This document shows, in pieces, positions 15,147-59,125 of a stretch of 64,000 bases of DNA. This DNA is from Bacteroidota bacterium (GTDB taxonomy: Bacteria > Bacteroidota > Bacteroidia > JAKFFM01): the NCBI GenBank assembly GCA_036675075.1, contig JAKFFM010000002.1, positions 83,120-147,119 of the forward strand, in the 5' to 3' direction. Positions within the stretch are counted from its first letter, which is position 1. Every line of letters begins with the position of its first letter. The position numbers were made by a program, and so were the translations under genes. Below the pieces are notes generated by a model. That model saw nothing but the letters and a program-made list of their open reading frames with translations. It was not told the DNA's origin and did not search any database.

Positions 15147-15214
15147 ATGTTAAGTATCCGAAGTGCTAGTGTTTACAGCTATTTCCGGGAGTACCTTTGT
15201 AAAAAAATCAATGC

Positions 15215-15889
15215 ATGAGTGTACAGAAGATATTGCTTGTTGACGATGAACCGGATATTCTGGAATTTCTTGCGTATAATCTTTCAAAAGAAGGATACAT
15301 TGTATGTACGGCCAGCAACGGCGCTGAGGCGATCAGGGTGGCGGATAAGGAAGAACCGGATCTTATCATTCTTGATGTGATGATGCCCGACATGGATGGC
15401 ATTGAAACCTGCCGCTCGTTAAGAGAAAACAAAAAGCTTGAAAATTCAGTGATCACTTTTCTTACTGCCAGAAATGAAGATTACTCACAGATCGCGGGCT
15501 TCGATTCAGGAGCTGATGATTACATCACAAAACCGATCAAGCCCAAGGTGTTTGTGAGCAGAGTGAAAGCGTTGCTGAGAAGAAAGGGCAAGCCTGAGCA
15601 TACGAGTGTTCAGACATTCGGTGAGCTTACTATTGATCGTGAAAAGTTTATTGTTGGCCTGGGAGGCAAAGAGCTCAATCTTCCGCGTAAAGAATTTGAA
15701 TTGCTTGAGCTTCTTGCATCACAGCCAGGTAAAGTGTTTACGAGAAATACCATACTTGAAAAAGTGTGGGGAGAAGATGTGGTGGTAGGAGATCGTACCA
15801 TCGATGTACACATCAGAAAGCTGCGCGAAAAGCTTGGCGATGAATTCATCCGCACAGTCAAAGGTGTTGGATATAAATTTGATTTTTAA
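15215..15889 (+). CDS. Two-component response regulator, OmpR/PhoB family
   Basis: 224 aa; receiver domain (LLVDDEPDIL, IILDVMMPDMDG, ITKPIKP) plus winged-helix output domain. Confidence 0.8.
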   Translation: MSVQKILLVDDEPDILEFLAYNLSKEGYIVCTASNGAEAIRVADKEEPDLIILDVMMPDMDGIETCRSLRENKKLENSVITFLTARNEDYSQIAGFDSGADDYITKPIKPKVFVSRVKALLRRKGKPEHTSVQTFGELTIDREKFIVGLGGKELNLPRKEFELLELLASQPGKVFTRNTILEKVWGEDVVVGDRTIDVHIRKLREKLGDEFIRTVKGVGYKFDF

Positions 15890-15894
15890 CGGTA

Positions 15895-16896
15895 TTGAAA
15901 AAGCTTACACGTCCCTTCTATCTTAGCATTCTCACATCAACGCTTCTTTCAGCATTGCTGTTTATTCTGGATCTGTTCAATGATCTGAAGGAATTTAAGA
16001 TCATCGCTGCATTCTTCATTTGTTCTTCACTTATCCTCTATATCATATTTAAATATTTCCTGTTCGACAGACTGAATAAGATTGTATCCAGGATAGATCC
16101 ACAGTTCAAAGGGGAACCCGATTTTATCCATGAGCTTGACCTCACTATCGAACGCTGGCAAAAGGAAAGAACAGGGGAGATCGAACGCCTTAAGAAGCTT
16201 GAAAATTACAGGAAGGAATTCCTTGGCAATGTTGGCCACGAGCTTAAGACTCCAATCTTTAATATACAAGGATATATCATGACCTTGCTTGATGGAGGGC
16301 TTGAAGATCCATCTATAAACAGGTCATACCTCCAGCGTGCGGAAAAGAGTGTGAACAGAATGGTCAGCCTTGTGGATGATCTTGAAGCCATCACCCAGCT
16401 CGAAAGCGGCGAGCTTGATCTTGAATTTTCAACTTTTGATTTGATCCCTATAATCAGGGAATTGATTATAAGCCATGAATACCGGGCACAGGGTAAGCAC
16501 ATCACCATCATGCTGAACTACTTCAGGACTAAAACAGTCATCGTAAGGGCAGATAAGTTCAGAATCAGGCAGGTGCTGACAAATCTGATCGTCAATTCGA
16601 TTAAGTATGGAAAGGAATATGGTGAGACAGAGATCAGGATCCATGAAGTCGGTGATGTCATTCGTGTTGAAGTTTCTGATAATGGCATTGGAATACCGGC
16701 TGAACACCTTCCTCGGTTGTTTGAACGGTTCTACAGAGTGGATAAGAGCCGGTCTCGTGAAATGGGTGGCACAGGCCTCGGCCTCGCGATCGTTAAGCAC
16801 ATACTTGAAGCTCATGGACAATCAATCAACGTGATGAGCACAGTTGGTGCAGGATCCGTTTTTTCATTCACCCTGGAAAAGGGACAAGACTCTTAA
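15895..16896 (+). CDS. Sensor histidine kinase
   Basis: 333 aa; two N-terminal TM helices; H-box NVGHELKTPI; ATPase boxes NLIVNSIKYG, DNGIGIP, GGTGLGLAIV; TTG start 6 nt after the regulator stop. Confidence 0.75.
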   Translation: MKKLTRPFYLSILTSTLLSALLFILDLFNDLKEFKIIAAFFICSSLILYIIFKYFLFDRLNKIVSRIDPQFKGEPDFIHELDLTIERWQKERTGEIERLKKLENYRKEFLGNVGHELKTPIFNIQGYIMTLLDGGLEDPSINRSYLQRAEKSVNRMVSLVDDLEAITQLESGELDLEFSTFDLIPIIRELIISHEYRAQGKHITIMLNYFRTKTVIVRADKFRIRQVLTNLIVNSIKYGKEYGETEIRIHEVGDVIRVEVSDNGIGIPAEHLPRLFERFYRVDKSRSREMGGTGLGLAIVKHILEAHGQSINVMSTVGAGSVFSFTLEKGQDS

Positions 16897-19574: not shown

Positions 19575-22500
19575 ATGTTGATTAAAAAAGAGAGAATTAC
19601 CGTGTTGATGCTTTTCCTTGTATCACTGATGCAAGTCTTTTCAGCAAAGGCACAACCTATTTCAAACCATTATTTCGGGCAGAATGCCTGGATGCCGGAT
19701 TCTATCGGAAACGTTAAGAAATACGGGCAGCTGGATTCTAAATGGCCTGAAATCAAAGCTTCGGGGGCTCAGATCATTCGATTCGGTGGTATCAGTGCCG
19801 ATAAGAATATGCCCACGAATTACCAGTATGTTAAAATGATCGATAAGATCAGAGCACAGGGCATGGAGCCGGTGATGCAGGTACCTTTCAATAAAGGACA
19901 ATATTCAGCAGCACAGGCGGCAGCGATCGTGAAATATGTGAACGTAACGATGGGCCGTAATGTCAAATACTGGGTTATCGCGAACGAACCGGATCTTGCA
20001 TACCAATATACAAGTGCCGGCCAGGTATCGTGGTATCTGAAGTCATTTGCCACTGCCATGAAAGCGCAGGATCCAACCATTAAGACGATTGGTCCTGAGA
20101 CTGCATGGTACAATAGCAATATCATTCACGGGCTTACCACACCAGGTGGTCCTGATGATGTTACAGGTAAAGATGCCAATGGAAGGTATTATATCGATTA
20201 TATCTCCTTCCATATGTACTCATTCAGTGGTACCCAGACTCGTTCACAGGTGCTTACTGACCTTACCGCACAATATCGTTTCGACTGGAACCTTGGTGAA
20301 CTGAATAACAGGATCGCCGCGTGTAACACTGCACATGGACGTTCAGGAACGAACGCTGTGAAGGTAGCCGTAACGGAAGCCAATGTGGGATTCCTTAACC
20401 CTTCATCGGATAACCTTTATGGAACCGGTGCAAACAGTTTCGTTGGTGGACAGTTCTGGGCTGAGCTTCTTGCCATTGGTATGAAGCGAGGTGTCGATTT
20501 CATTAACTTCTGGTCAGTTGTTGAAGGTAATAACACCCAATACAATATCGGGTACGTTGATTATGTCACTGGTGCAAAGAAGCCTGTCTATTATCACTTT
20601 CAGATGATGGCGCAGAACTTCAACGGTACTTATATCAACGGTACAGATAACCAGGCGAATGTTAAAGCATTCGGTGCAAGGAACAATGCCGGACAAACCG
20701 TTGTCATGATCCTTAACCAGGATCAGTCGGTGAACTACAATTATTCAGTGAGGCTTGATGGAAGTGCTGCATCAGGAACCAATCCGCTTAAGATCAATGT
20801 GAACTCGGGTATTGCAAAAGAATACACCGGAGCCATCAACAATCAGGCAACACAGGTGCTGGTGTTTGACGGCGCAGGTAACATTGTGAAGAAGATCGAC
20901 TATAAGCTTGCGGGGAACGCTGATGCGAACCTTGCACCAACAGTTACTAACTATACAGCAACTTCAAATACACTTGCTGCTACAATCACGCCTGCAGGTG
21001 CAACTGCGATCTGTTCAGGGTCAAGTGTGATCCTCAAGGCCAACACAGGTACAGGTTACACTTACCAGTGGAAAAAAGATGGTGTGAACATCACAGGTGC
21101 AACATCTGCGAACTATACTGCAACAACTGCAGGAAGCTACCAGGTTAAGATCGTTGCAGGAACACAGACTGCATGGTCAGCACCATTGACGGTGACAACA
21201 GGTGTTGCTCCGGCAGCGACCATTACAGCAGGAGGTTCATTGACTTTCGCTTCAGGTGGAGGTGTGAATCTTCAGGCGAACACAGGAACAGGTTTTACCT
21301 ATGTGTGGATGAAAAACAATGTAGCCATCCCGGGAGCGACAGCTTCCTTGTACCGTGCAACAACTGCAGGTTCATATACTGTTGTTGTTAAGAACAGCAC
21401 AGGATGTTCCAAGACCTCTGCAGCTGTTACTGTGAATGTTTCAGGTGCCTTTGCAGCGACGATTACTCCTGCAGGTGCAACTGCGATCTGTTCGGGTTCG
21501 AGTGTCGTGCTTAAAGCAAACACAGGGACAGGATATATTTATCAATGGAAGAAGAATGGTGTGAACATTACCGGTGCAACTGCAGCAAACTATACTGCTA
21601 CAACTGCAGGAAGCTACCAGGTGAAGATCATCTCCGGATCACAAACTGCATGGTCAGCGCCGTTGTCAATTACAACTGGTGTTACACCAACAGCAACGAT
21701 CACAGCAGGTGGATCATTGACCTTTGCAGCAGGCGGAGGTGTGAACCTTCAGGCTAACACAGGTACAGGCTTAACATATGTCTGGATGAAAAACAATGTA
21801 GCTATACCAGGTGCAACATCGTCATTGTATCGTGCGACTGCAGCAGGTGTTTATACAGTTGTTGTTAAGAATTCAACAGGATGTACGAAAACATCAGCAG
21901 GAGTTACAGTGAATGTTTCCGGTGGATTTGCCGCTACGATTACACCTTCCGGATCAACTACGATCTGCCAGGGTTCAAGTGTATTGCTGCGTGCAAACAC
22001 AGGTTCAGGCTTTATCTATCAGTGGAAAAAGAATGGTGTGAACATCACGGGTGCAACTGCTGCTACATATTCTGCTACTACTGCTGGAAGCTACCAGGTT
22101 AAGATCATATCAGGTACACAGACTGCATGGTCAGCACCATTGTCTGTGACGATTGGCGCGATGCCGGTGGTTTCGATCAAGGCAAATGGAAGCACAACAC
22201 TTTCAGCTGGTGGTTATGTGACTCTATCTGCAACAGCAGGAACAGGGTTCGGATACCAGTGGAAAAAGAATGGTGTGAATATATCCGGAGCAAATTCAAT
22301 TAACTATAATGCAAATGCTTCTGGTACATATACCTGCTACATTACACGTAATGGTGCATGTGGAGTGAATACTAACGGTATTGCTGTTTCAGTAGGAACT
22401 ACGTTCGTTGCGTCGATTACAGCTTCAGGTCCAACTTCAGTTGCCTTAGGTGGTAACGTTTGGTTAAAGGCGAATACAGGAACAGGCATCACATACCAGT

Positions 22501-23462
22501 GGAAGAAGAATGGATATGCGATCGCAGGTGCAACTGGTTCAAGCTATAATGCTACGCAGACAGGTTCTTATACAGTGACTGAAAGCTATGGTCTTACCAC
22601 AACGACATCCAATGCGATCAGCGTGAATGTTGGTTCAACACTTACTGCGATGATCTCTGCCGGTGGTCCGACAACATTCGGATCAGGAGGCAAGGTTGTT
22701 CTTTATGCGAACACTGGTGCAACATATGTATACCAGTGGAAGAAGAACGGTGTAGCGATCACAGGAGCAACTGCACCTACATATACAGCAACTACTTCAG
22801 GTAGCTACCAGGTAAAGATCACAAGTGGATCATTGAATGCATGGTCAGCACCGCTCACGGTGACTGTTTCAGGATCACTTGCAAAAGTGGCGGATTCAAC
22901 AACTGTAACAGATGGTGGTGAGATGGCTGCAATGAGCGAAGGCAACATGCAGGCTACAGGTGGTGAATCTGTGGAAGGAACAACCTACCAGTTCGCTAAT
23001 CCAAGTGATACCAATGTGATTTCAAATGAAAACAGCCTTGGTTCATCAGGAAGAAAAGGAACTGATGTAGGAAGGGAAGGCGCACAGGTTCTTAACAAGA
23101 CCGGAGCGGGTGGAAGGAAATCATCTTCTGCTTCGAGGACTGCTGAAACGCAGATGGATACCACGGAGCTGAACAAGATGATCAACAATGAAACAGGTAC
23201 TCTTTCATTGAAGGCATTCCCTAATCCGACTGAAGGAGATCTTACCATCACGGTCACAACTGTAAACACAGTGCAGACACAGGTGAAGATGGAGCTATAT
23301 AATACGTTAGGACAGATTGTATGGACGAAATCACCAGTGATTGAGAACGGATTCATGAATGATGTGATCCAACTCGATGGATCGGTCGCTTCAGGAGATT
23401 ACTTCCTGCGCGTTCGTGAAGACGCCGGAACACAAGTCATGAAAGTTTGTGTGATCAGATAA
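19575..23462 (+). CDS. T9SS-secreted glycoside hydrolase (clan GH-A-like catalytic domain) with about eight Ig-like repeats and type-A CTD
   Basis: Track ORF begins at GTG 19542; ATG 19575 gives a cleaner signal peptide. Catalytic region with WVIANEPD and KVAVTEANVG (putative acid/base and nucleophile); repeats ATITPAGATAICSGSSV...YQWKKNGVNITGAT; C-terminal Por-secretion tail (FPNPTEGDLTI...GDYFLRV...VIR). Confidence 0.65.
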   Translation: MLIKKERITVLMLFLVSLMQVFSAKAQPISNHYFGQNAWMPDSIGNVKKYGQLDSKWPEIKASGAQIIRFGGISADKNMPTNYQYVKMIDKIRAQGMEPVMQVPFNKGQYSAAQAAAIVKYVNVTMGRNVKYWVIANEPDLAYQYTSAGQVSWYLKSFATAMKAQDPTIKTIGPETAWYNSNIIHGLTTPGGPDDVTGKDANGRYYIDYISFHMYSFSGTQTRSQVLTDLTAQYRFDWNLGELNNRIAACNTAHGRSGTNAVKVAVTEANVGFLNPSSDNLYGTGANSFVGGQFWAELLAIGMKRGVDFINFWSVVEGNNTQYNIGYVDYVTGAKKPVYYHFQMMAQNFNGTYINGTDNQANVKAFGARNNAGQTVVMILNQDQSVNYNYSVRLDGSAASGTNPLKINVNSGIAKEYTGAINNQATQVLVFDGAGNIVKKIDYKLAGNADANLAPTVTNYTATSNTLAATITPAGATAICSGSSVILKANTGTGYTYQWKKDGVNITGATSANYTATTAGSYQVKIVAGTQTAWSAPLTVTTGVAPAATITAGGSLTFASGGGVNLQANTGTGFTYVWMKNNVAIPGATASLYRATTAGSYTVVVKNSTGCSKTSAAVTVNVSGAFAATITPAGATAICSGSSVVLKANTGTGYIYQWKKNGVNITGATAANYTATTAGSYQVKIISGSQTAWSAPLSITTGVTPTATITAGGSLTFAAGGGVNLQANTGTGLTYVWMKNNVAIPGATSSLYRATAAGVYTVVVKNSTGCTKTSAGVTVNVSGGFAATITPSGSTTICQGSSVLLRANTGSGFIYQWKKNGVNITGATAATYSATTAGSYQVKIISGTQTAWSAPLSVTIGAMPVVSIKANGSTTLSAGGYVTLSATAGTGFGYQWKKNGVNISGANSINYNANASGTYTCYITRNGACGVNTNGIAVSVGTTFVASITASGPTSVALGGNVWLKANTGTGITYQWKKNGYAIAGATGSSYNATQTGSYTVTESYGLTTTTSNAISVNVGSTLTAMISAGGPTTFGSGGKVVLYANTGATYVYQWKKNGVAITGATAPTYTATTSGSYQVKITSGSLNAWSAPLTVTVSGSLAKVADSTTVTDGGEMAAMSEGNMQATGGESVEGTTYQFANPSDTNVISNENSLGSSGRKGTDVGREGAQVLNKTGAGGRKSSSASRTAETQMDTTELNKMINNETGTLSLKAFPNPTEGDLTITVTTVNTVQTQVKMELYNTLGQIVWTKSPVIENGFMNDVIQLDGSVASGDYFLRVREDAGTQVMKVCVIR
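20979..22880 (+). repeat. Intragenic tandem DNA repeats encoding Ig-like domains (alternating A/B units, ~477-bp A+B period, then diverged copies)
   Basis: A-type units begin at ~20979, ~21455 and ~21933 and share long identical stretches (e.g. cctgcaggtgcaactgcgatctgttc; actgcaggaagctaccaggt); B-type units ATITAGGSLTFA.GGGVNLQANTGTG alternate with them. Confidence 0.7.
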
Positions 23463-23484
23463 TTATTAACCCATAAATCACAAG

Positions 23485-25134
23485 ATGAAAAAGCTTTTTG
23501 TAATGTCATTGCTGACTTTGTCAGCAATGACAAAAGCGCAGCCAATTGCGTCAACATTCTTTGGGCAGAATGCCTGGATGCCGGATACGATCGGTTCCAC
23601 CTTGTACTATGGACAGCTGCATAATAAGTGGCCGCAGATTGCAGAGAGTGGAGCAAAGCTGATACGATTCGGAGGAATAGGACCTGATAAGCATATGCCA
23701 ACCAAACATCAGTATCTGAAGATGGTTGACAAGATCCGTTCAAATGGAATGGAGCCAATGCTGCAGGTGCCTTTCTATAATGGAATGTATAATGCACAGC
23801 AGGCTGCTGAAATTGTTAAGTATATCAATGTTACCATGGGAAGGAATGTGAAGTACTGGATCGTGGCCAATGAACCTGATAATGAGTATGGCTATAATAC
23901 AGCAGCACAGTGTGCAGCATACATCAGATCATATTCTTCAGCAATGAAAGACATTGATGGCTCGATCAAGATTATTGGACCTGAAACAGCATGGTATAAC
24001 ACAAACATCATTAATGGGTTGATCACTCCGGGCGGACCAAGTGATGTTACGGGAAAGGACAGCAAAGGCAGGTATATCCTGGATATATTGTCATTCCACA
24101 TGTATGCATTCAATGGAACACAGACCCGTGCACAGGTGATTTCAAACCTCACTGAACCATGGAAGTTCCAGGCGAACCTTACAGACCTTAACACACGGAT
24201 CGCGAGCTGTAACCAATATCACGGTCGAACAGGTGACAATGCAGTCAAAACAGCAGTCACTGAAGCCAATGTCGGATACATCAACAGTGCATCTGATAAC
24301 CTGTACGGTAGTGGAGCAAACAGCTTTCTTGGTGGACAGTTCTGGGTTGAAATGATGGGTGTTGCCTTACAGAAGGGTGTTGCCTTCTTCACTCCATGGA
24401 GTGTGGTCGAGGGAAACAACACGCAGTTCAACATCGGGTATATTGATTATACGAACGGAAAGAAAAAGCCAACATACTATCATTATAAAATGATGGCCGA
24501 GAACTTCAACGGGACCATGGTCTCTGCTTCTGATAACCAGGCTAACGTAAAAGTGTTTGCGAGTAAGAGTGGATCATCAGTAGCTCTTATGATCCTTAAC
24601 CAGGAATCATCAGGCACACATTCGTACAGCGTAAAGCTTGATAATGGTGTGAGCAACGGTTCAGAATCTTTGAAGATCAAAGTGGCAGGCGGTATAACCT
24701 CTACATACTCTGGTGATTTGCCAGCACAGTCAACACAGTTGCTTGTGTTCGACCTGAATGGAACATTAATGAAAAAGATCGATTACAAATTGTATGGTCA
24801 TGCTGACGCGAATCTTCCGCCGGCAGTAACAGAATCATCCATACCAACAGCGATCACGGAAGAGATGGTTAAAAAGAACCTGAGTGTTTTCCCGAATCCT
24901 TCGAAGGGTGATTTTACAATAGAGATCCAGGCCATAGACGGATTTGAAGATGATATACCTATGAAGCTGATCAATGAGATCGGACAGGTTGTTCTTGAGA
25001 AGAAGTTGTCACCGCGTAATGGAAAAATCCGTGAGCTGATCACTCCGCATGGAGATCTTGCATCAGGGATGTATTTCATTTCCCTTGACCTGGAAGGAAA
25101 GAGCATCATTAAGAAGCTGGTGATAAGAAACTGA
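23485..25134 (+). CDS. T9SS-secreted glycoside hydrolase, paralog of the upstream catalytic domain, with type-A CTD
   Basis: 549 aa; roughly 70 percent identical by eye to the N-terminal 440 aa of the upstream protein (FGQNAWMPD...IRFGGI...MGRNVKYW.VANEPD...VTEANVG); C-terminal FPNPSKGDFTIEI...GMYFISL...VIRN sorting domain. Confidence 0.65.
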   Translation: MKKLFVMSLLTLSAMTKAQPIASTFFGQNAWMPDTIGSTLYYGQLHNKWPQIAESGAKLIRFGGIGPDKHMPTKHQYLKMVDKIRSNGMEPMLQVPFYNGMYNAQQAAEIVKYINVTMGRNVKYWIVANEPDNEYGYNTAAQCAAYIRSYSSAMKDIDGSIKIIGPETAWYNTNIINGLITPGGPSDVTGKDSKGRYILDILSFHMYAFNGTQTRAQVISNLTEPWKFQANLTDLNTRIASCNQYHGRTGDNAVKTAVTEANVGYINSASDNLYGSGANSFLGGQFWVEMMGVALQKGVAFFTPWSVVEGNNTQFNIGYIDYTNGKKKPTYYHYKMMAENFNGTMVSASDNQANVKVFASKSGSSVALMILNQESSGTHSYSVKLDNGVSNGSESLKIKVAGGITSTYSGDLPAQSTQLLVFDLNGTLMKKIDYKLYGHADANLPPAVTESSIPTAITEEMVKKNLSVFPNPSKGDFTIEIQAIDGFEDDIPMKLINEIGQVVLEKKLSPRNGKIRELITPHGDLASGMYFISLDLEGKSIIKKLVIRN

Positions 25135-25230
25135 GAAGACACCTATACACTTTGAGAAATATTATTTAAGATCAGGAATAGCTAACTTGTTAAACAACAC
25201 CTTGTAACTAGCTGATTTTATTTAAGAAAG

Positions 25231-25255
25231 GCCCGCAACAGCGGGCTTTTTTTTT
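25231..25255 (+). terminator. Rho-independent terminator after the GH gene pair
   Basis: gcccgc-aaca-gcgggc hairpin (25231-25246) followed by nine T (25247-25255). Confidence 0.6.
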
Positions 25256-25298
25256 AGGCATAGATTTTTTAATGATCACCTGGAATAAATCGGTTGAT

Positions 25299-26924
25299 AT
25301 GAAAAAGTCTATACTAAGTTTAGTAACGTTGCTCACGTTTTTAGCTGGTGCAACATACGCCCAAAGTTATCAGTGGGCAAAAAGAATTGGTAGTTACGGT
25401 GTTGATTTCGGTCGCGCAATAGCTTCAGATCCTCAGGGAAATATCTATGTGACAGGTCAGTTCGAGTTCGATGCATACCTGGCAGGAAATAACACCATTA
25501 CATTCACTGCCATGGGAGGTCACGACATCTTCCTTGCGAAATACAGTCCTTCAGGTAATTTGCTCTGGGCACGCAAGGCAGGAGGAACAGGTGGGGATGC
25601 GGGAACCGCAATCTATGTAGATGCTGCCGGTAATTCCTACATCACTGGTGAGATGGAAGGTGCAAGCTACTTCGAATCAACAGTGCTTAACTGCCAGGGA
25701 AGCAATGATATTTTCATCGCTAAATACAACACGAACGGAGATCTTGTATTTGCTGCACAGGCCGGAGGATACTCTGGTGACAGAGGAAGAGCGATCGTTG
25801 CCGATGCTGATGGCAATGTTTATGTGACAGGTGAATTCAGGCAATCAGCCGGATTTGGAAGTCATTCCGTAACTACTGCAGGAGTTTATAAGGATTTCTT
25901 CCTGGCTAAATACAATCCTTCTGGTGGCTGGGAATGGGTGCGTCCGGGTGGCAGCAGCGTTGATGACCAGGGACAGGCTATCTGCCTCGATCCTACAGGC
26001 AATGTATATGTAGCAGGATATCATGGGCCCAATTCAACATTCGGAAATGCGGCTTTATCATCTGCAGGTGGATTTGATATGTTCATAGCGAAGTTTACAC
26101 CCAATGGTAACATGGACTGGATCCAGCGTGCAGGTGGAGAATGGGATGACTACATCGCAGGGCTTGCCTTTAATTCGGATGACAACGTAATTTATGTTAC
26201 CGGTGAATTCAGAGGCACATCAGACTTCGGTCCGATCACAAAGATTGAAACGGGATGGGGAGATGTATTTGTCGGAGCTTATTCAACAGCAGGAACTCCA
26301 TTATGGATCTCGACAGCTGGAGGCTCTGGTGCAACAGATTGTTCAAAAGCGATCGCCCTTGATGACAACAACAACATTTACATCACAGGGAATTACGGGA
26401 AATCTGCAACATTTCCTGCTCCAATGTCAGGTGACACATCCGAAGTTTTCATAGCAAGCTTTAATCCATCTGGAAGTCTGCGCTGGATCACTGATGCAAA
26501 AGGTTCCGGTAAAGAAGACATTGGCAGAGGCATCACGCTTGATCCGGGTGGTAATGTTTACGTCGTTGGAAATTATAATGAATACCAGGGCACACCGACA
26601 GAAAATCTGAATGTTGGTTCTGCAGTGCTGACAGGCTTTTCAAATGAAGATGCATTCATCCTGAAATATTCACCTGTATTGCCAAGCGGTATAAAAGAGC
26701 TGACTTCCGGCATTATGGAATTTTATCCGAACCCTGCAAGTGATCAGGTCTTCATAAGCCCTGGTGTGAGTGGTGAAATGATCATTCAGAATGAACTGGG
26801 ACAAGTGCTGACAAGAAAAAATGTAGTTGCGGGAGTGGCTGAAACAATTGATTTGAAAGGATTTGGATCAGGTATGTTTTTCTTAAGGTTGGAAAACGAG
26901 TCGAGAAAGCTGATAGTTTATTAG
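25299..26924 (+). CDS. SBBP-repeat beta-propeller protein with T9SS type-A CTD
   Basis: Start moved from 25272 to ATG 25299 (MKKSILSLVTLLTFLAGA signal peptide). Repeats of the form G.D.G.AI..D..GN.YVTGEF ... DIF.AKY...G.L.W typical of SBBP propellers; C-terminal EFYPNPASDQVFI...GMFFLRL sorting domain. Confidence 0.6.
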   Translation: MKKSILSLVTLLTFLAGATYAQSYQWAKRIGSYGVDFGRAIASDPQGNIYVTGQFEFDAYLAGNNTITFTAMGGHDIFLAKYSPSGNLLWARKAGGTGGDAGTAIYVDAAGNSYITGEMEGASYFESTVLNCQGSNDIFIAKYNTNGDLVFAAQAGGYSGDRGRAIVADADGNVYVTGEFRQSAGFGSHSVTTAGVYKDFFLAKYNPSGGWEWVRPGGSSVDDQGQAICLDPTGNVYVAGYHGPNSTFGNAALSSAGGFDMFIAKFTPNGNMDWIQRAGGEWDDYIAGLAFNSDDNVIYVTGEFRGTSDFGPITKIETGWGDVFVGAYSTAGTPLWISTAGGSGATDCSKAIALDDNNNIYITGNYGKSATFPAPMSGDTSEVFIASFNPSGSLRWITDAKGSGKEDIGRGITLDPGGNVYVVGNYNEYQGTPTENLNVGSAVLTGFSNEDAFILKYSPVLPSGIKELTSGIMEFYPNPASDQVFISPGVSGEMIIQNELGQVLTRKNVVAGVAETIDLKGFGSGMFFLRLENESRKLIVY

Positions 26925-26947
26925 ATACTTTTTTAAGGGAGGTATAG

Positions 26948-27868
26948 GTGAAGGTTGCAAGGTTAATAGTGATTCTGATCATGCTGTGTTCTGCTTCGCA
27001 GGCACAGCTTGTCATTAATGAAATTCCGCGTGGAATGTATTATGAACGGACTGCAAGGGTGCGGAAGTTCAAAGACATGAAGAACATGCGTGATGTGTTT
27101 CATTATGATGGACTGCTGATGGGCCGTAACAGGATCATGGGAAGTTTCTCAAACAACTTTGGAAGGATCTGGGTTCCTGAAGCAGGCGGATATAAAGCCC
27201 GTTTCAGATCACAGATGGGTTACTTCCTGCGCTTTCGCTTTTTTGAAGAATACAGTATCAACCTTACCTTATACCAGGACCTGAATAAAAAGGCTGCGCT
27301 GCCATGGAGTCCACATGTGAATTATTCCATCGGACGATACCAGTGGCGACCAAACAAATTCAACTACGGTTACGAAAATTATCAACCCAACCGGTTCGAT
27401 CATAACGCGACAGACTGGAAGACGAAGTTCCTGCAGGGATACTACTTTATATCTTACTCGCACCTGCTACCCGACAGCTTAAGGAAATACACCCAGATCG
27501 ACAGTACATCGATGCTGAAGTTCACATACTTCGTAAGATATTCGATCTTTTATGCGGGCAATCAAAATGAAAATCTGGGAGGCACCTGGATGAACTCCAA
27601 GCCTGTATTTGGATTCAATGTGCGATACATCATTGGAAGAAACTACTATGTTGAGTTCAACCCGCTTGTGCATCTGAATAAACGAACACAGATGCCATGG
27701 GATGGTGACTTTACCTACGGGGTTGGTTATTTCGATTATCGGTCATTCCGTGTCTCTGCTTCCTATGCGAATTACGGTCCCAACAGGTGGCCATGGAACA
27801 GGCAGGATGTATTGCCACATGGATTCTTTGAAGGCAATTTCCGTCTTGCATTTAACTGGGTATGGTAG
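26948..27868 (+). CDS. Hypothetical exported protein, aromatic-rich, possible outer-membrane beta-barrel
   Basis: 306 aa; signal peptide MKVARLIVILIMLCSASQAQ; rich in Y/W/F/N/R; C-terminal FNWVW (terminal aromatic as in many OM barrels); GTG start; stop overlaps next start. Confidence 0.4.
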   Translation: MKVARLIVILIMLCSASQAQLVINEIPRGMYYERTARVRKFKDMKNMRDVFHYDGLLMGRNRIMGSFSNNFGRIWVPEAGGYKARFRSQMGYFLRFRFFEEYSINLTLYQDLNKKAALPWSPHVNYSIGRYQWRPNKFNYGYENYQPNRFDHNATDWKTKFLQGYYFISYSHLLPDSLRKYTQIDSTSMLKFTYFVRYSIFYAGNQNENLGGTWMNSKPVFGFNVRYIIGRNYYVEFNPLVHLNKRTQMPWDGDFTYGVGYFDYRSFRVSASYANYGPNRWPWNRQDVLPHGFFEGNFRLAFNWVW

Positions 27869-29476
27869 ATGAAGGTGTTATTGATTATCCTACTTGCATT
27901 TTTTATAAGTGCCCCTACAGGGTGCTATTCACAGCTTAAATTTCTCATTGAAGATTTCGAAGGATGTTCACGTTCTCCTGAATCAATGAACAGGATCGGA
28001 GCTTTCACATTCGGGTCACTCAAACTAAAAATCAGTCAGTCGCAATCTTCTGGTAAAGGATACTCTGGCCGAACAGCGATTGAGCAGCTGCATGATGGAA
28101 CACACATTTACGGAGGATGGGGCCTTGGTGTTTTCAGGTTGATTCAGCTGAACCAGGAGAAGGATCGGTTTAACTTCTTCTTTCTTTCCAGAGAAGCAAC
28201 TGATGCATCCATGATCATTTATCTACAGGATGATGATAACTGGGATGGTGTCTTCACTGAACATTCCGACGATGTATGGAAGTATCATGCTACCATTAAA
28301 CCTGGTAAAGGCTGGCAGTATTTTTCTATTCCGCTGAGTGCTCTTTTTGATGATAATAAAGGGGGTGATGGTGCTTTCAATATCAACTATAAAGAAGGCA
28401 AGCTGCTGTCGGTCATGTTCAGAAATACAGGAAGATCAACTCCCAATGTGTTGTATGATTTTTTCTGTTTCAGCGAAGGACACCTGAGTGATCCTGCGAC
28501 TTTTTCAGAGGCCAGACTCAATGTTCAGAATGCGGGATGTGCAATTGGTGCCTGGTCTGAAGAAGGGCAGAGAAGCGGACTAGGTGATATTGTAAGAGGC
28601 TTTACAAAGGGCGCTACAGGGACAGGGAGTGTTTCTCTTGTACATTCATTTCATCCGTTTTCTGATGATGGAAGCACAAGGGCAAACAAGTTTCCTGACG
28701 CAAGGGAGTTACAACGTGTTGTGGATGGCGGACTTGTTCCAATGATCACTATAGAGAATCAGTTTCTAGGCCTTAAAGATAAAAAGCAGCCATCACTGAA
28801 GGATGTTGCTGAAGGTCGTTATGACCATTATTTTTCTGAATGTGGAAAGCGGTTCAGCCAGGTGAAAGGCAAAGTCATGGTGAGGCTGATGCATGAGTTC
28901 AATGGCAACTGGTACCCATGGTGTATTGCCAACAACAACAATTCACCTGAACTGTATAAAGCGGCATGGAGGCGGATCGTAACGAAGTTCAGGGAAGCTG
29001 GAGCACACAACGTGTTGTTTGTCTGGTGTCCTAACTCTGGCTCTCTTCCGCAGAAGCCATGGAACTACATCATAGATGCCTACCCGGGTGATGATGTCGT
29101 TGATATTGTTGGAACCGATGTTTACAATGGAGCAGAAAAAGGTAACATGATCTGGAGAAGTTTCAGGAAGGAAGCATCGGAAACATACTGGCTCCTGACA
29201 TCGCATTTTCCTGACAAGCCGTTCATGATCTGTGAAATGGCCTCACGTGAAAGACATAAGAGTGATGGCAAAGATGCACCTGGAAAAGAAGACTGGATCT
29301 ATGAAGCAAGTGAAGCACTGAAAACGGATTTCTCAAAGTGTTTCGTTTTTACATGGTTTAACAGTGGAAAGTATAAGATCAACACGAGTGATAATTCACG
29401 TAATGCATTTATAAATTATATGTGGTCAGATCCTTACTTCAAGGATAAGTCACTCAAGCTTGATAATCTCAGGTAA
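27869..29476 (+). CDS. Putative carbohydrate-binding domain fused to a GH26-like glycoside hydrolase
   Basis: 535 aa; signal peptide ending ...PTGC; N-terminal ~200-aa beta-sandwich-like domain (KGYSGRTAIE...YGGWGLGV...LQDDDNWDG); C-terminal VRLMHEFNGNWYPWCIA resembles the GH26 acid/base motif, FMICEMASRE a possible nucleophile region. Confidence 0.5.
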   Translation: MKVLLIILLAFFISAPTGCYSQLKFLIEDFEGCSRSPESMNRIGAFTFGSLKLKISQSQSSGKGYSGRTAIEQLHDGTHIYGGWGLGVFRLIQLNQEKDRFNFFFLSREATDASMIIYLQDDDNWDGVFTEHSDDVWKYHATIKPGKGWQYFSIPLSALFDDNKGGDGAFNINYKEGKLLSVMFRNTGRSTPNVLYDFFCFSEGHLSDPATFSEARLNVQNAGCAIGAWSEEGQRSGLGDIVRGFTKGATGTGSVSLVHSFHPFSDDGSTRANKFPDARELQRVVDGGLVPMITIENQFLGLKDKKQPSLKDVAEGRYDHYFSECGKRFSQVKGKVMVRLMHEFNGNWYPWCIANNNNSPELYKAAWRRIVTKFREAGAHNVLFVWCPNSGSLPQKPWNYIIDAYPGDDVVDIVGTDVYNGAEKGNMIWRSFRKEASETYWLLTSHFPDKPFMICEMASRERHKSDGKDAPGKEDWIYEASEALKTDFSKCFVFTWFNSGKYKINTSDNSRNAFINYMWSDPYFKDKSLKLDNLR

Positions 29477-29527
29477 GGAAAAATAAGTGGCATTGTTTTG
29501 TTTAAGTAATCACAAACATTTTCATTC

Positions 29528-30319
29528 ATGAAAGAGAATTTAAAACCATTGATGATCCTGTTTGGTTTCGTCGGATCAGTGGTGCTGGTGTTTTTTATTG
29601 AAACCACGTACCTGCTGGATGAAAAGCATGAGGCAGAAACCTCAGTGCCTGTCAAGGCAATAAAAGAATCAATGAATAACTCTATCGGGGATCCCGGAGA
29701 GATCAAGGAAGTTTTTGAAGACTTTGAAAAGCTGGAAGAAGGAGCAAACCCTGAACTGCGGCATATCTTCACTTATGGTTCGATCAAAGTAGCAGCTACA
29801 AAGGAAAATACAAGAGGAAAAGGATACTCAGGAAGTCGTGCCATTAAGGTTACCTGGACAGCCGAGCACAATTTCGGAGGATGGGGAAAAGGGATCGGGC
29901 ATTTTTACAGGATCGACAAGGAGAACGATTACCTCAACTTTTTTGTTCTCTATCCATCAGGCAATGACGATCTCCTGAAAATTGTATTACAGGATGATGA
30001 TAACGGTAACGGATCGTATGAAGAGGACAAGGATGATGCCTGGTTCTCAGAGATACCGCTCAAGGCATCTCCGGAATGGCAACTGTTCTCCATACCTGTG
30101 AAAGAGCTGAAGGACCAGACATCCGGAGGAGATGGCACCTTAAATATTGCTGAGGGTGAAGGAAACCTGATCACCTTTTTATTTGAATTTCCAAGAAGTG
30201 GTGAATACACCAAAGAGAAGGTGTGGTACTTCGATCATGTGAATCTTACAAAAGGAAAAATTCCTGTAGGGAAAGATATTACAGACATACCAGTTTCCAT
30301 GTCAAATCTTTATAAATAG
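29528..30319 (+). CDS. Stand-alone paralog of the N-terminal (putative carbohydrate-binding) domain of the upstream hydrolase
   Basis: 263 aa; N-terminal TM/signal anchor; shares EDFE...KGYSG.RAI...FGGWGKG...NFF.L...LQDDDNGNG...QLFSIP...GGDG..NI with 27869..29476 but has no catalytic domain. Confidence 0.45.
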   Translation: MKENLKPLMILFGFVGSVVLVFFIETTYLLDEKHEAETSVPVKAIKESMNNSIGDPGEIKEVFEDFEKLEEGANPELRHIFTYGSIKVAATKENTRGKGYSGSRAIKVTWTAEHNFGGWGKGIGHFYRIDKENDYLNFFVLYPSGNDDLLKIVLQDDDNGNGSYEEDKDDAWFSEIPLKASPEWQLFSIPVKELKDQTSGGDGTLNIAEGEGNLITFLFEFPRSGEYTKEKVWYFDHVNLTKGKIPVGKDITDIPVSMSNLYK

Positions 30320-30324
30320 TTACG

Positions 30325-31551
30325 ATGAAAGAATTGAACAACGACAGGGTTCATTTTATGAACCTTGATTTCCTGAGGTTCCTTGCGGCCTACATGATTG
30401 TGATTCTTCACTCCTTTACTGCGTGGCAGGCAAATTACGGGAATCCGACATGGATGGAAGCGAAGGATGGCAATCTTTCCTTTTTCGGATTATTATTGAA
30501 CCGTGGAGTAAATAATCTTGGATTTGGTGTGGATATATTTTTCCTGATCAGCGGATTCCTGATTACTTACCTGTTGCTCGCAGAACGTGAAAGAACAGGT
30601 GGTGTTGACGTTTTCAAGTTTTATGTTCGAAGAGCTTTCAGGATCTGGCCATTGTATTTCCTGCTGTTGCTGGGTGCTCCGTTAATGGCGTTTTTCTTCA
30701 ATGAGAAGATGCCTGAGTTTGCTTACCATTTTGCCTTCCTGGGAAACTTTGAAACGATCAAAAACCATACGATCAATCCAATCACTACGCATTTGTGGTC
30801 TATCTGTGTGGAAGAACATTTCTACCTGATCTGCCCTGTGATCCTGGCGTTCATTCCGACAAAGAAATTGCCTCAGGCATTCCTCATCATCATTTTTGCA
30901 TCGATCCTTTTCAGGTACAACATCTATGATCATCCAAACTCAAGCAGTCATCTCTATCTGAATACCTTGAGCAGAATTGATACGCTTGCGTTAGGTTGTC
31001 TTTTCGGATACCTTGTTTATTTCAAGAAACTTCAGTTCAACGATCCTTTGCCTGTGAGGCTGATTGTTTATTCGATCTTCCTGCTCATGTTATTCACGGA
31101 GAATTTCAAGAGCGTTCATTCTCCATTTGATGCTGCATTGAAAAAGTACCTGTTCCTGATGCCGGCAGCTTACTGGCTTGGGAATTTTATTTTCAATGCG
31201 GGCGCAGTGATGGTTCCAAGGAAGGAAAACTTCTTCCATTTGCTGGGTAAAGCTTCTTATGGATTATATATGTTTAATCCTGTACTTATTTCTGTTATGC
31301 TGAAGTATTTCCATAAGTATGACTTCCAGAATTTCATTGTGTACACCGTACTCGTGAACGGAATCCTGCTCGGAATCACCCTGCTGAGTTATCACTATTT
31401 TGAAATGCCATTCCTCAAGCTGAAAGAGAAGTTTTCTGTTATTCCAAGCGGAAGTACAAAGCATGCTGCCCAGAACCCGGAACCTTCAAAAGCTCCGGTA
31501 CTGGCTGCAGTTGAAGAAAGCAAAGTGCCTCCAACACAGGGACAGGTATAG
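30325..31551 (+). CDS. Acyltransferase family 3 membrane protein (polysaccharide O-acyltransferase-like)
   Basis: 408 aa; about ten TM helices; N-terminal LDFLRFLAAYMIVILHSF and RIWPLYFLLLL resemble acyltransferase-3 (OatA/WecH-like) proteins. Confidence 0.7.
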   Translation: MKELNNDRVHFMNLDFLRFLAAYMIVILHSFTAWQANYGNPTWMEAKDGNLSFFGLLLNRGVNNLGFGVDIFFLISGFLITYLLLAERERTGGVDVFKFYVRRAFRIWPLYFLLLLGAPLMAFFFNEKMPEFAYHFAFLGNFETIKNHTINPITTHLWSICVEEHFYLICPVILAFIPTKKLPQAFLIIIFASILFRYNIYDHPNSSSHLYLNTLSRIDTLALGCLFGYLVYFKKLQFNDPLPVRLIVYSIFLLMLFTENFKSVHSPFDAALKKYLFLMPAAYWLGNFIFNAGAVMVPRKENFFHLLGKASYGLYMFNPVLISVMLKYFHKYDFQNFIVYTVLVNGILLGITLLSYHYFEMPFLKLKEKFSVIPSGSTKHAAQNPEPSKAPVLAAVEESKVPPTQGQV

Positions 31552-32041
31552 CACATCTATTCGCAACTTCAGCATGATGTTATCATTGATGTGTGATGTC
31601 AAAGGATAGTTCTAACCTGACATGTGAACTATGTATGCAAATGCATGATGCCTTGTGATAATGATTTTAAGTCGAGGTTATCTGTTCTACTGATTTGAAC
31701 ATGATTTATTCTTTCATCCTGAAGAATCATTCCTGATATAGAGTCTTGCTGTCGATAGAATCAGGGATGACTTCATCATTAAGTGCTATTATTACCATGT
31801 ATCAAGCATGAATGATCATCACAAGATTCATTGAAATGATGCTGTTATACATTTACCCTATAACAATGAGCGTCCAGGCTTCTGCAGGTTAAACATGAAA
31901 TCCTTGAATGCAATCAGTAAATTGATTCATGAAAATTGATATCCCGGAAGCTTAGAAGAAACACGCTTACATGAGGGTATTGTTTCTCTCAATTTTTAAA
32001 CACCTGGGATAATTAAATGGAACTCCAGCGTACTTGTTAAA

Positions 32042-32096
32042 CCCGGATTATGCAATAGGAGTTATTAAAAATAGCGAACTACTTGCATTATCCGGG
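32042..32096. repeat. Inverted repeat, 14-nt arms with one mismatch, 27-nt spacer, in a gene-free spacer
   Basis: cccggattatgcaa (32042-32055) and ttgcattatccggg (32083-32096); the right arm overlaps a competing short hairpin cgggg-ttt-ccccg (32093-32105). Confidence 0.5.
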
Positions 32097-32236
32097 GTTT
32101 CCCCGACTTAGAAAATCACTCTTTTGATCAAATCAGAATGGTCTTAACGTGCTGATTTTCTTAGTCGATTATGCATTAAAATTTTTATAGTGCATAATTT
32201 GAGTTAAAGCAGGAAATAAGACACACGTAGTGTCGT

Positions 32237-32455
32237 TTATTTTTGCATGGATGCCTTTTCTGGCTCTCCAACCGCCCGTTTCGGGTCATCAGACTTCCCG
32301 TTATTTTGTGGAGCTGTATGATAAGATGGAATGTCCATGCCTACATCATCTGGCTGCAGCTGCTCCAGCTTTAAAACAATATAAGCAGCGCATAAAAGGC
32401 TAATGATAAAGAACACTGGTTTTACTAGAAACTTGTATGTCTGCGGTGTTGTCAT
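32237..32455 (-). CDS. Small single-TM membrane protein, last gene of the synthase operon
   Basis: 72 aa; one hydrophobic helix (VFFIISLLCAAYIVL); start 1 nt after the synthase stop. Confidence 0.35.
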   Translation of the reverse strand: MTTPQTYKFLVKPVFFIISLLCAAYIVLKLEQLQPDDVGMDIPSYHTAPQNNGKSDDPKRAVGEPEKASMQK

Positions 32456-32456
32456 G

Positions 32457-34376
32457 TTAGTGTGACTTTATAGAACTCCATTTCAACTTACGCGCCAACC
32501 TGGATTTGAAATCTGCAAGTCCATTATATTGAAGCGGATTTTTTATATCATAGTCTTTCTCCTCCCACCATGCAGCCCTGATCATCACACTCAGGTTATA
32601 CACAGTGAACAGACTCCAGAATGTATTCGTAATGTATCCGGATATGCTTGGATGCTGTCCCTGGAAAATTAGAAAGATGTTGTAAATGTTCCCGATCACG
32701 ATCAGGCTTATAATAATGACATGAGGCAGTATATGCGGTAAGTAGCTTGCTTTTGATTTCTCTTTAGGTGTCACATGGAATTGCACCTTTTTTCCAATGA
32801 CTACCGAAATGATGGATAAGGTCATGAGCCAGAAGGATGCTATGTAATACTGGTCGCTTCTGTCTGATGTCCGGCCCCAGTTCACCAGCAGGATCGCGAT
32901 GGCATTAAAGATCTGGAACGGTATATAATATTTCAGGAAGTCAAAGCTGTAGGCCTTTACCGGAAGCTCCAGGGTAAAGTAAAAAAGAATAGGACTGAAG
33001 ATGAAGATGATCAGCCAGATGGGTGCGAAATACGAATAGATGGAGCTGAAATAGCACATGCGTTGTCCTAATGTCAATCCTTTCATGAAGAGCGGATTGT
33101 CTTTGAAGGCAATGTCAAGTGAACCGGCTGCATATCGTGATCGCTGCTTGACCCAGGTGTCAATGTCCTGCGGTGAAAGCATCTTGCATTCCACATAAGG
33201 ATGCTCATAGCTTTCCCATCCCTGTGCATGAAGCATCATGGATGTATAGATATCCTCCGATGCATGGAACTTAAACGGGATGAGCTGGTTGTCCAGATAT
33301 GTCTTTCGTTTATACTCGAGGATCTCTTTTTCAGTGAACGATGTGTGCCCGATGGCTTCAAGCTTCTTCTTAAGCTCTTTACGAACGCCTTTCGCATAGT
33401 CTTTTATTGCGAGCTCCATCACTGCTTCCCGGCGATGTATGGATCCTGCGCCACAGCAGAAAGCAGCATTGTGAAAATTTCGTCTGCGTAATAGTCCGTC
33501 ATAGAATCCTTCCGGGTGGTTGCCGAAAATATCTTCTTCGATATAGACCTTCCCGAATATCAGTTCAATGCACCACCCCGCGCTTCTACCCAGCCATCCT
33601 GCTTTTTTGGTGAGCCAGTCTTTTAAGTAAATAGGTTCAGATGTATCATAGAACCACTGAGGTGTCTGTACCCATGCAAGCTTTTTGCTTCTGAAGTATC
33701 CGGTGGTGGCAGTAAGAATGGTATCAAACGGTCGTGCATCAGCATCAAGGATCACAAACAGATCTCCCTGAGTATGCTCAAGTCCGTTTCGAAGATTGCC
33801 TGCTTTAAAACCTTCGTTGTTTTCACGACAGAAGTATCCAACGCCTTCTTCTTCGGCAACTTTTTTCATGTTCTGCTTGGAAGGATCACGTCCATCGCGT
33901 CGTCCATCATCGAGCACAAAGATGTTCACAGGAACATCATCAAAAGGATACCTGATCTTTTTCGAGTCTCTGATGGTGTAGCGTACAAGCTCAACATCTT
34001 CGTTGTAAGTGGCAATGTGAATGTCGATCCTCACTGGTCTGTCAGGCCGTCCACGCAAATCTTCGATCTCAGAGAGAAACCTGACAGGTTCTTCTATCGG
34101 ACGATCTTTTGGTGACCAGTAGTTAACATAAAGGAAGATGGTGCTGAAGAAGCTCAGTGTTTCTGCAACCACCAGAGGGATCGCGAACCAAAGGCAATTC
34201 AGGTTAAGTGAATACTTCCATCTCCACCAGATATATAATGCGCCAATGGCGAGTGCCACGATGGCCAGGAACTGGAACATCATGTTCCTGAACTCGCTTA
34301 TTGGTAGCGGAGTATAAGGTTTTCTGTGTTCAAACTTGTTAAAGTAAAATTCCTTTAACGGTGGCTCCTGATTCAT
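32457..34376 (-). CDS. BcsA-like processive GT2 polysaccharide synthase lacking a C-terminal PilZ domain
   Basis: 639 aa; N- and C-terminal TM bundles flank a cytoplasmic GT2 domain with VLDDG, FKAGNLRNGL, ILDADARP, QTPQWFYD and QRSRY (QxxRW-like with Y); only ~40 aa follow the last TM helix. Confidence 0.7.
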   Translation of the reverse strand: MNQEPPLKEFYFNKFEHRKPYTPLPISEFRNMMFQFLAIVALAIGALYIWWRWKYSLNLNCLWFAIPLVVAETLSFFSTIFLYVNYWSPKDRPIEEPVRFLSEIEDLRGRPDRPVRIDIHIATYNEDVELVRYTIRDSKKIRYPFDDVPVNIFVLDDGRRDGRDPSKQNMKKVAEEEGVGYFCRENNEGFKAGNLRNGLEHTQGDLFVILDADARPFDTILTATTGYFRSKKLAWVQTPQWFYDTSEPIYLKDWLTKKAGWLGRSAGWCIELIFGKVYIEEDIFGNHPEGFYDGLLRRRNFHNAAFCCGAGSIHRREAVMELAIKDYAKGVRKELKKKLEAIGHTSFTEKEILEYKRKTYLDNQLIPFKFHASEDIYTSMMLHAQGWESYEHPYVECKMLSPQDIDTWVKQRSRYAAGSLDIAFKDNPLFMKGLTLGQRMCYFSSIYSYFAPIWLIIFIFSPILFYFTLELPVKAYSFDFLKYYIPFQIFNAIAILLVNWGRTSDRSDQYYIASFWLMTLSIISVVIGKKVQFHVTPKEKSKASYLPHILPHVIIISLIVIGNIYNIFLIFQGQHPSISGYITNTFWSLFTVYNLSVMIRAAWWEEKDYDIKNPLQYNGLADFKSRLARKLKWSSIKSH

Positions 34377-34636
34377 TCGAAATTGATAATGCTGTCCAGC
34401 TCCAGCTGTTTTAATTGATCCATCACTTCTGGCTTAACATTGATAACCCTTGTTTCAATTCCACTGCTCAGGTTATACTTCACTTTATCTATAAGGCGTG
34501 CGATATCTGAGTTTGTAAGAAAACACACTTCCTTTAGATCAACATAATGCACTCGTTCATACAATCTCCCGGAATGTTCAGGGAATGCCTCTGACTTGCT
34601 GAACAAATCCTTACTCCTCGTAATCTTCATATCCAA
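34373..34636 (-). CDS. Small STAS-like (anti-sigma-factor-antagonist-like) protein
   Basis: 87 aa; VDLKEVCFLTNSDIARLIDKV...INVKPEVMDQLKQLELDSIINF matches the second half of the STAS fold, with a Ser at the usual phospho-site position; stop overlaps the synthase start by 4 nt. Confidence 0.35.
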   Translation of the reverse strand: MDMKITRSKDLFSKSEAFPEHSGRLYERVHYVDLKEVCFLTNSDIARLIDKVKYNLSSGIETRVINVKPEVMDQLKQLELDSIINFE

Positions 34637-54949: not shown

Positions 54950-54988
54950 TTGAAAGAGAGTTTAATAGTTAGTTTTTAATAATAATCC

Positions 54989-59098: not shown

Positions 59099-59125
59099 TA
59101 ATTGAATTCGAGTAATAATACGAAT

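Follow-up and report, generated by a model that had tools for sequence, protein, structure and literature searches.

We analysed a 64,000-nt stretch of a Bacteroidota genome (contig JAKFFM010000002.1, positions 83,120-147,119; hereafter the window, whose own coordinates are used throughout) that carries seven plus-strand genes, here called g1 to g7, converging on a minus-strand operon for a BcsA-like polysaccharide synthase. The array runs from g1 (19542/19575-23462) through g2 (23485-25134), g3 (25272-26924), g4 (26948-27868), g5 (27869-29476) and g6 (29528-30319) to g7 (30325-31551), with intergenic gaps of 22, 137, 23, 0, 51 and 5 nt. The convergent operon is headed by an exported CotH protein with a proprotein-convertase P domain (34644-36443; Pfam CotH, 1.8e-63), followed by an 86-aa STAS-like protein whose gene (34373-34636) overlaps the start of the synthase gene (32457-34376). 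Directly downstream of the synthase lies the gene for a small hydrophobic protein (32237-32455, minus strand like the rest of the operon; 72 aa), which reads as a probable single-pass transmembrane (TM) protein. An initial annotation, made from the nucleotide sequence alone, had described the array as two paralogous glycoside hydrolases (GH) resembling clan GH-A, an SBBP propeller, a barrel-like protein, a GH26-like enzyme with a carbohydrate-binding module (CBM), a CBM-like paralog of it and an acyltransferase-3 (AT3). The open reading frames (ORFs) agree with the positions and gaps it gave, and domain searches and a structure model agree with the products.

The 137-nt gap holds an intrinsic terminator on the plus strand (25230-25256; GGCCCGC aaca GCGGGC followed by T9), also seen by the initial annotation, that is predicted to be strong, so g1-g2 and g3-g7 probably form separate transcription units. 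In public gene calls, where identical proteins are found, the g1 start lies 11 codons later and g3 starts at 25299, the probable start, which gives a 541-aa protein and widens the g2-g3 gap to 164 nt. A sigma-70 promoter scan returned no more sites than shuffled sequence and is uninformative for Bacteroidota. Array and operon are separated by an unusually long non-coding spacer of 685 nt (31552-32236). This spacer contains no Rfam family and no tRNA, and it does not align with that of a relative whose synthase is 88% identical and whose flanking genes align at ~73%. We thus ruled out a conserved RNA or regulatory element between the two gene sets.

Products of the array and the synthase operon

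The synthase is a 638-aa glycosyltransferase of family 2 (GT2) by both Pfam and NCBIfam, with about six TM segments. It matches the BcsA family at 1e-68 versus 2e-3 for OpgH, its best solved relatives are BcsA structures (1e-38), and it retains the DDG, DAD, SED and FCCGA motifs and the FxVTxK gating loop. No PilZ domain was matched in Pfam or NCBIfam, and the protein ends after its last TM region. Neither BcsB nor BcsC has a family match among the ORFs of 13260-36443, where the 72-aa TM protein and a 306-aa barrel (g4) are found instead. The tryptophan of the QxxRW motif is replaced by tyrosine; tryptophan is absent from this position in all ten aligned sequences, which read QxxRY in Bacteroidota and QxxKY in the others, and among 75 family members covered by a motif search, 50 had QxxRY. 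The QxxKY members are proteobacterial, ignavibacterial and acidobacterial; the family as a whole keeps FxVTxK, (S/T)ED and FCCGA (window and relatives' loci L001-L080). The synthase is a member of an uncharacterised family spread over several phyla. With a GT2 synthase, a barrel (g4) and a GH26 enzyme (g5) in the window and a TPR protein in relatives but not in the window, the locus is best filed in the general class of synthase-dependent exopolysaccharide (EPS) systems; lacking PilZ, BcsB and BcsC, it falls outside the Bcs complex, from whose QxxRW motif it also departs.

Most Bacteroidia loci conserve the 72-aa protein behind the synthase, and gene calls in relatives include it. The STAS ORF is N-terminally short: the related locus L085 encodes a 135-aa Pfam-STAS protein at the same position, and the ORF aligns to its residues 53-130 at 35% identity. 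A TPR-SpoIIE (PP2C) phosphatase (13260-15146, plus strand; Pfam SpoIIE and TPR) is encoded 17 kb from the STAS ORF and may regulate the STAS protein by partner switching. In L024 and several proteobacterial loci SpoIIE phosphatases adjoin the synthase homolog, and the phosphatase of the window may tentatively be assigned to the synthase system; the window showed no anti-sigma-type kinase close to it. Its gene shares the interval 13260-16896 (plus strand), ~17 kb from STAS, with genes for an OmpR-type response regulator and a histidine kinase. CotH, for its part, has a kinase fold in Bacillus. A second GT2 gene (1-632, minus strand), cut by the window edge, adjoins a GH2_C-like TIM-barrel gene (688-1962, minus strand), and in two relatives a GT2::GH2_C fusion of ~1290 aa is encoded ~5 kb from the STAS-synthase operon (L085, 615-4484; L086, 616-4509). 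The second GT2 and the GH2_C gene would be a second make-and-cut pair.

The first three array genes encode predicted cargo of the type IX secretion system (T9SS). As the initial annotation had it, three products carry a type-A C-terminal domain (CTD): in g1, g2 and g3 the Por_Secre_tail/TIGR04183 domain scores above the curated cut-offs in both Pfam and NCBIfam, and signal peptides were read from the sequence. g1 comprises a clan GH-A domain with a beta-sandwich, about eight Ig-like modules (Ig_2/Ig_3 matches), a low-complexity linker and the CTD, while g2 is a two-domain clan GH-A hydrolase, 61% identical to g1 over 448 aa. Both show the clan features, namely a (beta/alpha)8 barrel, an acid/base after strand 4 (NEP) and a strand-7 nucleophile. 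Family-level Pfam matches stay below cut-off (GH39, 17 bits; Glyco_hydro_cc, 19.9 bits), the candidate families are GH39, GH44, GH51, GH79 and GH30, and identity to solved GH-A members is 11-23%. Fold prediction was needed for g2 because a sequence search of the PDB matched its CTD alone; the top structural matches by identity are GH44 glucanases (20-23%). The g2 family is small, with 422 matches among 5.8 billion proteins and no annotated function. Both hydrolases would act outside the cell. g3 is an SBBP beta-propeller (E = 2e-31). Within g1, a 477-bp tandem unit spanning two Ig-like modules is present in 2.4 copies at 80% identity (20991-22144, plus strand), which indicates a putative recent internal duplication in the stalk region. 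The window also holds T9SS-related genes for two CHU_C (type-B CTD) proteins (5295-8441 and 8567-10825, both minus strand), one with SprB repeats. At 51245-60205 (plus strand) it encodes a TonB-dependent-receptor-like protein (1234 aa), a 1369-aa protein without a Pfam match and a PorV-like protein.

g4 and g6 have no Pfam or NCBIfam match. In the predicted structure of g4 (306 aa; pLDDT 79.5), about 12 strands form an outer-membrane beta-barrel, and g4 is the probable exporter of the polymer, or at least a candidate export channel. Its family is likewise small and without annotated function (169 matches among 5.8 billion proteins). The g5 gene follows with a 0-nt gap and is predicted to be translationally coupled to g4. 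Its product has a signal peptide (possibly that of a lipoprotein), a CBM-like beta-sandwich and a GH26 catalytic domain (PF02156; 58.3 bits versus a cut-off of 20.2, E = 1e-15), and no T9SS CTD. The closest solved relative is the lichenase CtLic26A of C. thermocellum (5e-22; the best other GH26 chain scores 6e-11), with which the catalytic glutamates align as acid/base in HEFNG and nucleophile in ICEMAS. The enzyme therefore has both the domain and the two catalytic residues that CAZy expects of GH26, and its substrate assignment is putative.

g6 has one N-terminal TM helix (residues 8-26), a CBM-like domain and no catalytic domain, and its closest kin in the array is the N-terminus of g5, to which it is paralogous (residues 18-185 of g5, 38% identical). 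Scanned individually, 8 of 11 g6 orthologs match SGBP_B_XBD, a xyloglucan-binding domain (best 3.7e-7), and CBM30 and CIA30 matches also occur; the domain profile found nothing significant in the PDB. The "CBM-like" label is reasonable for the family by these profile matches, though less secure for the copy in the window. g7 is an integral-membrane AT3 acyltransferase (Acyl_transf_3, PF01757; residues 14-355, 93.1 bits versus a cut-off of 31, E = 2.2e-26) without an SGNH domain. Many extracytoplasmic glycan acetylases of the AT3 type carry such a domain as a fusion. We propose that g6 is the periplasmic partner of g7, and the two form a probable O-acylation module.

Linkage of the array to the synthase

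Relatives of the synthase number at least 572 among GTDB species representatives, and those at ~60% identity are common in uncultured Bacteroidia; 80 loci were fetched. The count within the clade covers 10 kb around the synthase in 30 loci of at least 12 kb from Bacteroidia metagenome-assembled genomes, each from a different GTDB species and with a synthase at least 55% identical. Families were counted by per-gene coverage-filtered matches; single-linkage clustering of ORFs merged families through CTDs and fusions. At least one array family lies near the synthase in 24 of the 30 loci. The neighbour most constantly linked is g3, whose relatives are found in 24/30 loci, 0.4-3.7 kb from the synthase and, in 23 of these loci, on the other strand. 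Relatives of g1/g2 are present in 16/30 loci, the g6-g7 pair in 10/30, CotH in 7/30, g5 in 3/30 and g4 in 2/30.

The g6-g7 pair is always mutually adjacent (all ten counted loci with g6, plus L023), and in these same loci g7 orthologs of ~50% identity adjoin the synthase. The adjacency of g4 and g5 is also kept among relatives; the pair is rare in the 10-kb count because it usually sits ~11-12 kb from the synthase, past the fetched flank, where it was placed by gene-order matching. Two loci centred on g4 homologs, L088 and L089, have g4-g5 in one block with CotH, g2 and glycogen-type genes, and glycogen-type genes flank the synthase in the relatives L085 and L086. CotH of L088 and L089 carries a T9SS CTD, and at least nine related loci in all have a CotH neighbour. 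In L088 (8789-12591) and L089 (8792-12582), two response regulators are followed by a signal-peptide TPR protein (394-397 aa) that lies directly before g4-g5. The TPR protein has no homolog in the window. By analogy, the resulting TPR-barrel-hydrolase order appears to be the triad of AlgK/E/L, BcsC/Z and PelB/A.

At least three gene orders occur across the clade, and the relative with the 88%-identical synthase has exactly the arrangement of the window. Given how few members the g2 and g4 families have, we infer that the repeated adjacency of array and synthase through these rearrangements is unlikely to be chance. The proposed link between the two gene sets thus survives comparative genomics, having been kept in 24 of 30 loci through shuffled orders. 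The make-and-trim reading of the initial annotation is thereby supported, with refinements: the array would do more than trim, adding a probable exporter (g4) and a probable O-acylation module (g6-g7). Its analogy to BcsZ, PgaB and AlgL/AlgJ would apply to g5 alone, as the likely periplasmic enzyme, while g1 and g2 would act outside the cell.

Outside the clade (loci L039-L080, as against L001-L038 within it), 29 loci of at least 12 kb were counted. A g4 profile found barrels beside the synthase in 17 of them, from Flavobacteriaceae, Ignavibacteria, Desulfovibrio relatives and alpha-, beta- and gammaproteobacteria, with one more match in a Chlorobiota locus just under 12 kb. The Flavobacteriaceae operon consists of synthase, DUF3131 and barrel genes with gaps of 8-22 nt. 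One to five copies of DUF3131 flank the synthase in 25/29 loci outside the clade and in none within it, which suggests that the GH-A and GH26 enzymes displaced DUF3131 in the Bacteroidia clade. DUF3131 has no solved relative in the PDB, so it gives no clue to the type of linkage.

Proteobacterial synthases from SGI3, Klebsiella, Pantoea, Paracoccus and Azotobacter share 43-47% identity with the synthase of the window, and mobile islands and plasmids in Salmonella, Klebsiella and Pantoea carry members of the family. The Azotobacter, Paracoccus and Pantoea loci encode one to three DUF3131 proteins, SpoIIE phosphatases and anti-sigma-type kinases, and some of them AT3/OpgC, STAS, GH16, GH3 or GH2 proteins. 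AT3/OpgC, STAS, kinase and SpoIIE recur beside the synthase in Azotobacter and Paracoccus, and SpoIIE and kinase in Pantoea. In the literature searched, we found no functional study of this synthase system or of DUF3131, and two descriptive mentions only: gene lists for the Salmonella SGI3 cluster (PMC3401170) and for accessory block 3b of K. pneumoniae (PMC12974863).

Comparison with known glycan systems

Relative to the Bcs cellulose system (BcsA/B/C/Z), the locus shares a processive GT2 enzyme with DDG, DAD, (S/T)ED, FxCG and FxVTxK, and the logic of a synthase, a periplasmic endoglycanase and an outer-membrane barrel, with a TPR partner in relatives. It differs in having no PilZ, BcsB or BcsC, and its barrel is a separate, small protein of ~12 strands whereas BcsC joins 16 strands to TPRs. 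The hydrolase is of GH26 rather than GH8, QxxRY/QxxKY replaces QxxRW, regulation apparently runs through STAS/SpoIIE instead of cyclic di-GMP (c-di-GMP), and T9SS cargo and an AT3 module are added. With alginate and acetylated cellulose (Alg8/44-AlgK-AlgE-AlgL-AlgIJFX; WssFGHI) the locus would share periplasmic O-acylation, trimming and TPR-plus-barrel export. Those systems acylate with MBOAT proteins (AlgI/WssH) and SGNH-like proteins, where this locus would use AT3 and a CBM-like partner, and the g4 barrel is far smaller than AlgE.

The GH39 enzyme PslG of Pseudomonas aeruginosa is a further comparison. g1/g2 are 11% identical to it, and they are T9SS-secreted to the surface or exterior, whereas PslG is membrane-anchored in the periplasm and Psl is a Wzx/Wzy-type rather than a synthase-dependent system. 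Rhizobial BgsBA makes a TolC-dependent, c-di-GMP-controlled mixed-linkage beta-glucan with a BcsA-like synthase that also lacks PilZ and BcsB (PMC13438883). The lichenase-like GH26 of the window would fit such a product; the locus has no BgsB-type membrane-fusion protein, and its export route and regulators differ. On the plasmid-borne rhizobial/Ensifer matches, which are less than 30% identical to the window synthase, orthology to BgsA or curdlan synthase was rejected.

The proteobacterial clusters (SGI3, block 3b, Pantoea stewartii pDSJ10, Paracoccus, Azotobacter) have Qxx(R/K)Y in those examined, AT3/OpgC, STAS, kinase, SpoIIE, several GHs and often a g4-like barrel. They differ in having DUF3131, GH16, GH3 and GH2 and in lacking T9SS cargo, the GH26/CBM pair and SBBP. 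The AT3 of Azotobacter (L056, 8823-9995) was considered as an ortholog of g7 and ruled out, the two showing no similarity. The recurrence of AT3 is for this reason an analogy, and its association with the synthase appears, from this comparison, to have arisen by independent recruitment. Polysaccharide-utilization loci (PULs) also combine secreted or periplasmic GHs with CBM-like glycan-binding proteins in one array; this array has no SusC/SusD and no PUL-type sensor or regulator, and it does have an acyltransferase and the synthase linkage.

Proposed pathway and rival explanations

We consider it likely, at a probability of roughly 0.65, that the array supplies the accessory half of a synthase-dependent EPS system, with the convergent CotH-STAS-synthase-small-TM operon as its core. 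The following steps are all drawn from homology and gene context. The BcsA-like synthase would polymerise a linear beta-glycan and translocate it across the inner membrane. c-di-GMP is not an obvious switch because the synthase has no PilZ, and the STAS protein encoded directly upstream may gate the enzyme in its place, its state probably being set by a SpoIIE-type phosphatase. In the periplasm, g7 and its constant partner g6 would O-acylate the chain and the GH26 enzyme g5 would trim it, in the role of BcsZ, AlgL or PslG, of which g5 alone is the likely analogue. The g4 barrel would then pass the chain through the outer membrane, and T9SS would place g1, g2 and g3 on the cell surface to cut, remodel or tether the polymer. 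T9SS-secreted enzymes of the clade would in this way fill the place of the DUF3131 proteins of other phyla. Our best guess for the polymer is a beta-glucan with 1,4 and/or 1,3 linkages, with glucomannan as a possible alternative. This guess is based on the lichenase-like GH26, the matches to SGBP-B XBD, CBM30 and CIA30, the proteobacterial GH16 and GH3 genes and the identity of g2 to GH44 enzymes.

Several observations weigh against this pathway. Six of the 30 clade loci have no array family within 10 kb of the synthase, so that linkage over this range is optional. Array and synthase operon are convergent rather than joined in one transcript, and the strong terminator splits g1-g2 from g3-g7. 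Glycogen-type genes (GT5, GH57, GH15) share the neighbourhood in relatives, and the clustering may in part reflect a general glucan-metabolism region. The window STAS ORF is missing the N-terminal third of the domain, whereas relatives encode a full STAS of 130-135 aa, and the AT3 proteins of the window and Azotobacter have no pairwise similarity. The best structural matches of g4 are the uptake channels Tsx, KdgM and NanC. Known EPS exporters are larger, with 16-18 strands, than the 12-strand g4, and T9SS-secreted GH-A and GH26 enzymes are typical of nutrient acquisition in Bacteroidota.

Some of these points would fit a nutrient-glycan degradation locus, the alternative raised by the initial annotation, in which the hydrolases and an oligosaccharide uptake porin feed on environmental beta-glucans or mannans and the synthase is unrelated. 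GH26 and GH-A enzymes with T9SS CTDs are common in foraging by Bacteroidota; the nearest structures to g4 are uptake channels; terminator and orientation part the array from the operon; and relatives have glycogen and GH15 genes nearby. We nonetheless judge this reading improbable. No SusC/SusD pair and no uptake or catabolic gene adjoins the array: 13260-37544 contains no SusC/SusD, and the nearest TonB-dependent receptor-like gene (51245-54949) has no SusD match beside it. In 24 of 30 species the synthase linkage has outlasted rearrangements, of which there were at least three; catabolism has no use for an AT3 acyltransferase, which points with the channel to biosynthesis and export; and g4-type barrels belong to the synthase operon in Flavobacteriaceae and co-occur with the synthase in other phyla.

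The most serious alternative is that g1, g2 and g5 disperse or recycle the cell's own matrix, with g4 re-importing oligosaccharides and the polymer leaving elsewhere. The 12-strand barrel does resemble oligosaccharide-specific porins, matrix-degrading dispersal enzymes are generally known (for example dispersin B and externally applied PslG), and the GH3 beta-glucosidase and GH2 genes of the proteobacterial clusters suggest breakdown to monomers. We still regard turnover as unlikely: the window array offers no other candidate outer-membrane exporter, the TPR-barrel-hydrolase order of L088 and L089 mirrors export modules, and the synthase-hydrolase-barrel operons of Flavobacteriaceae mirror bcsA-bcsZ-bcsC. 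Least likely of all, and in our view very improbable, is an acylated periplasmic glucan akin to osmoregulated periplasmic glucans, with the T9SS proteins acting on something else. Such a product would accord with the OpgC-annotated acyltransferases that accompany the proteobacterial homologs (PMC12974863; PMC3401170) and with the absence of a large exporter. It is opposed by the three T9SS cargo genes being those most constantly linked to the synthase in the clade, by the outer-membrane barrel, with or without a TPR partner, being kept beside the synthase, and by the synthase matching BcsA far better than OpgH.

Returning to the accessory half of a synthase-dependent EPS system, we would extend it only tentatively, at a little under even odds, to a wider proposal: that the locus is the Bacteroidota form of an undescribed, multi-phylum class of beta-glycan secretion systems. 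This class would combine a Qxx(R/K)Y synthase without PilZ or BcsB, a STAS/SpoIIE switch replacing c-di-GMP control, an export barrel of ~12 strands with or without TPR and an AT3 module, and in the Bacteroidia clade T9SS-secreted GH-A enzymes, SBBP and CBM-GH26 would displace DUF3131. If this were true, T9SS would be coupled to the processing of a matrix polysaccharide.

To our knowledge, the synthase-dependent EPS pathways that are understood are few (cellulose, PNAG, alginate, Pel, and curdlan or mixed-linkage glucan), and almost none come from Bacteroidota. The locus makes one more pathway of this kind tractable through a defined set of genes, and it places the g1/g2 GH-A family and DUF3131, both without annotated function, in a candidate substrate context. 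If the proposed pathway is correct, it would comprise a new small outer-membrane glycan exporter, a c-di-GMP-independent switch of a BcsA-type enzyme and, within the literature searched, the first T9SS cargo dedicated to the cell's own matrix polymer.

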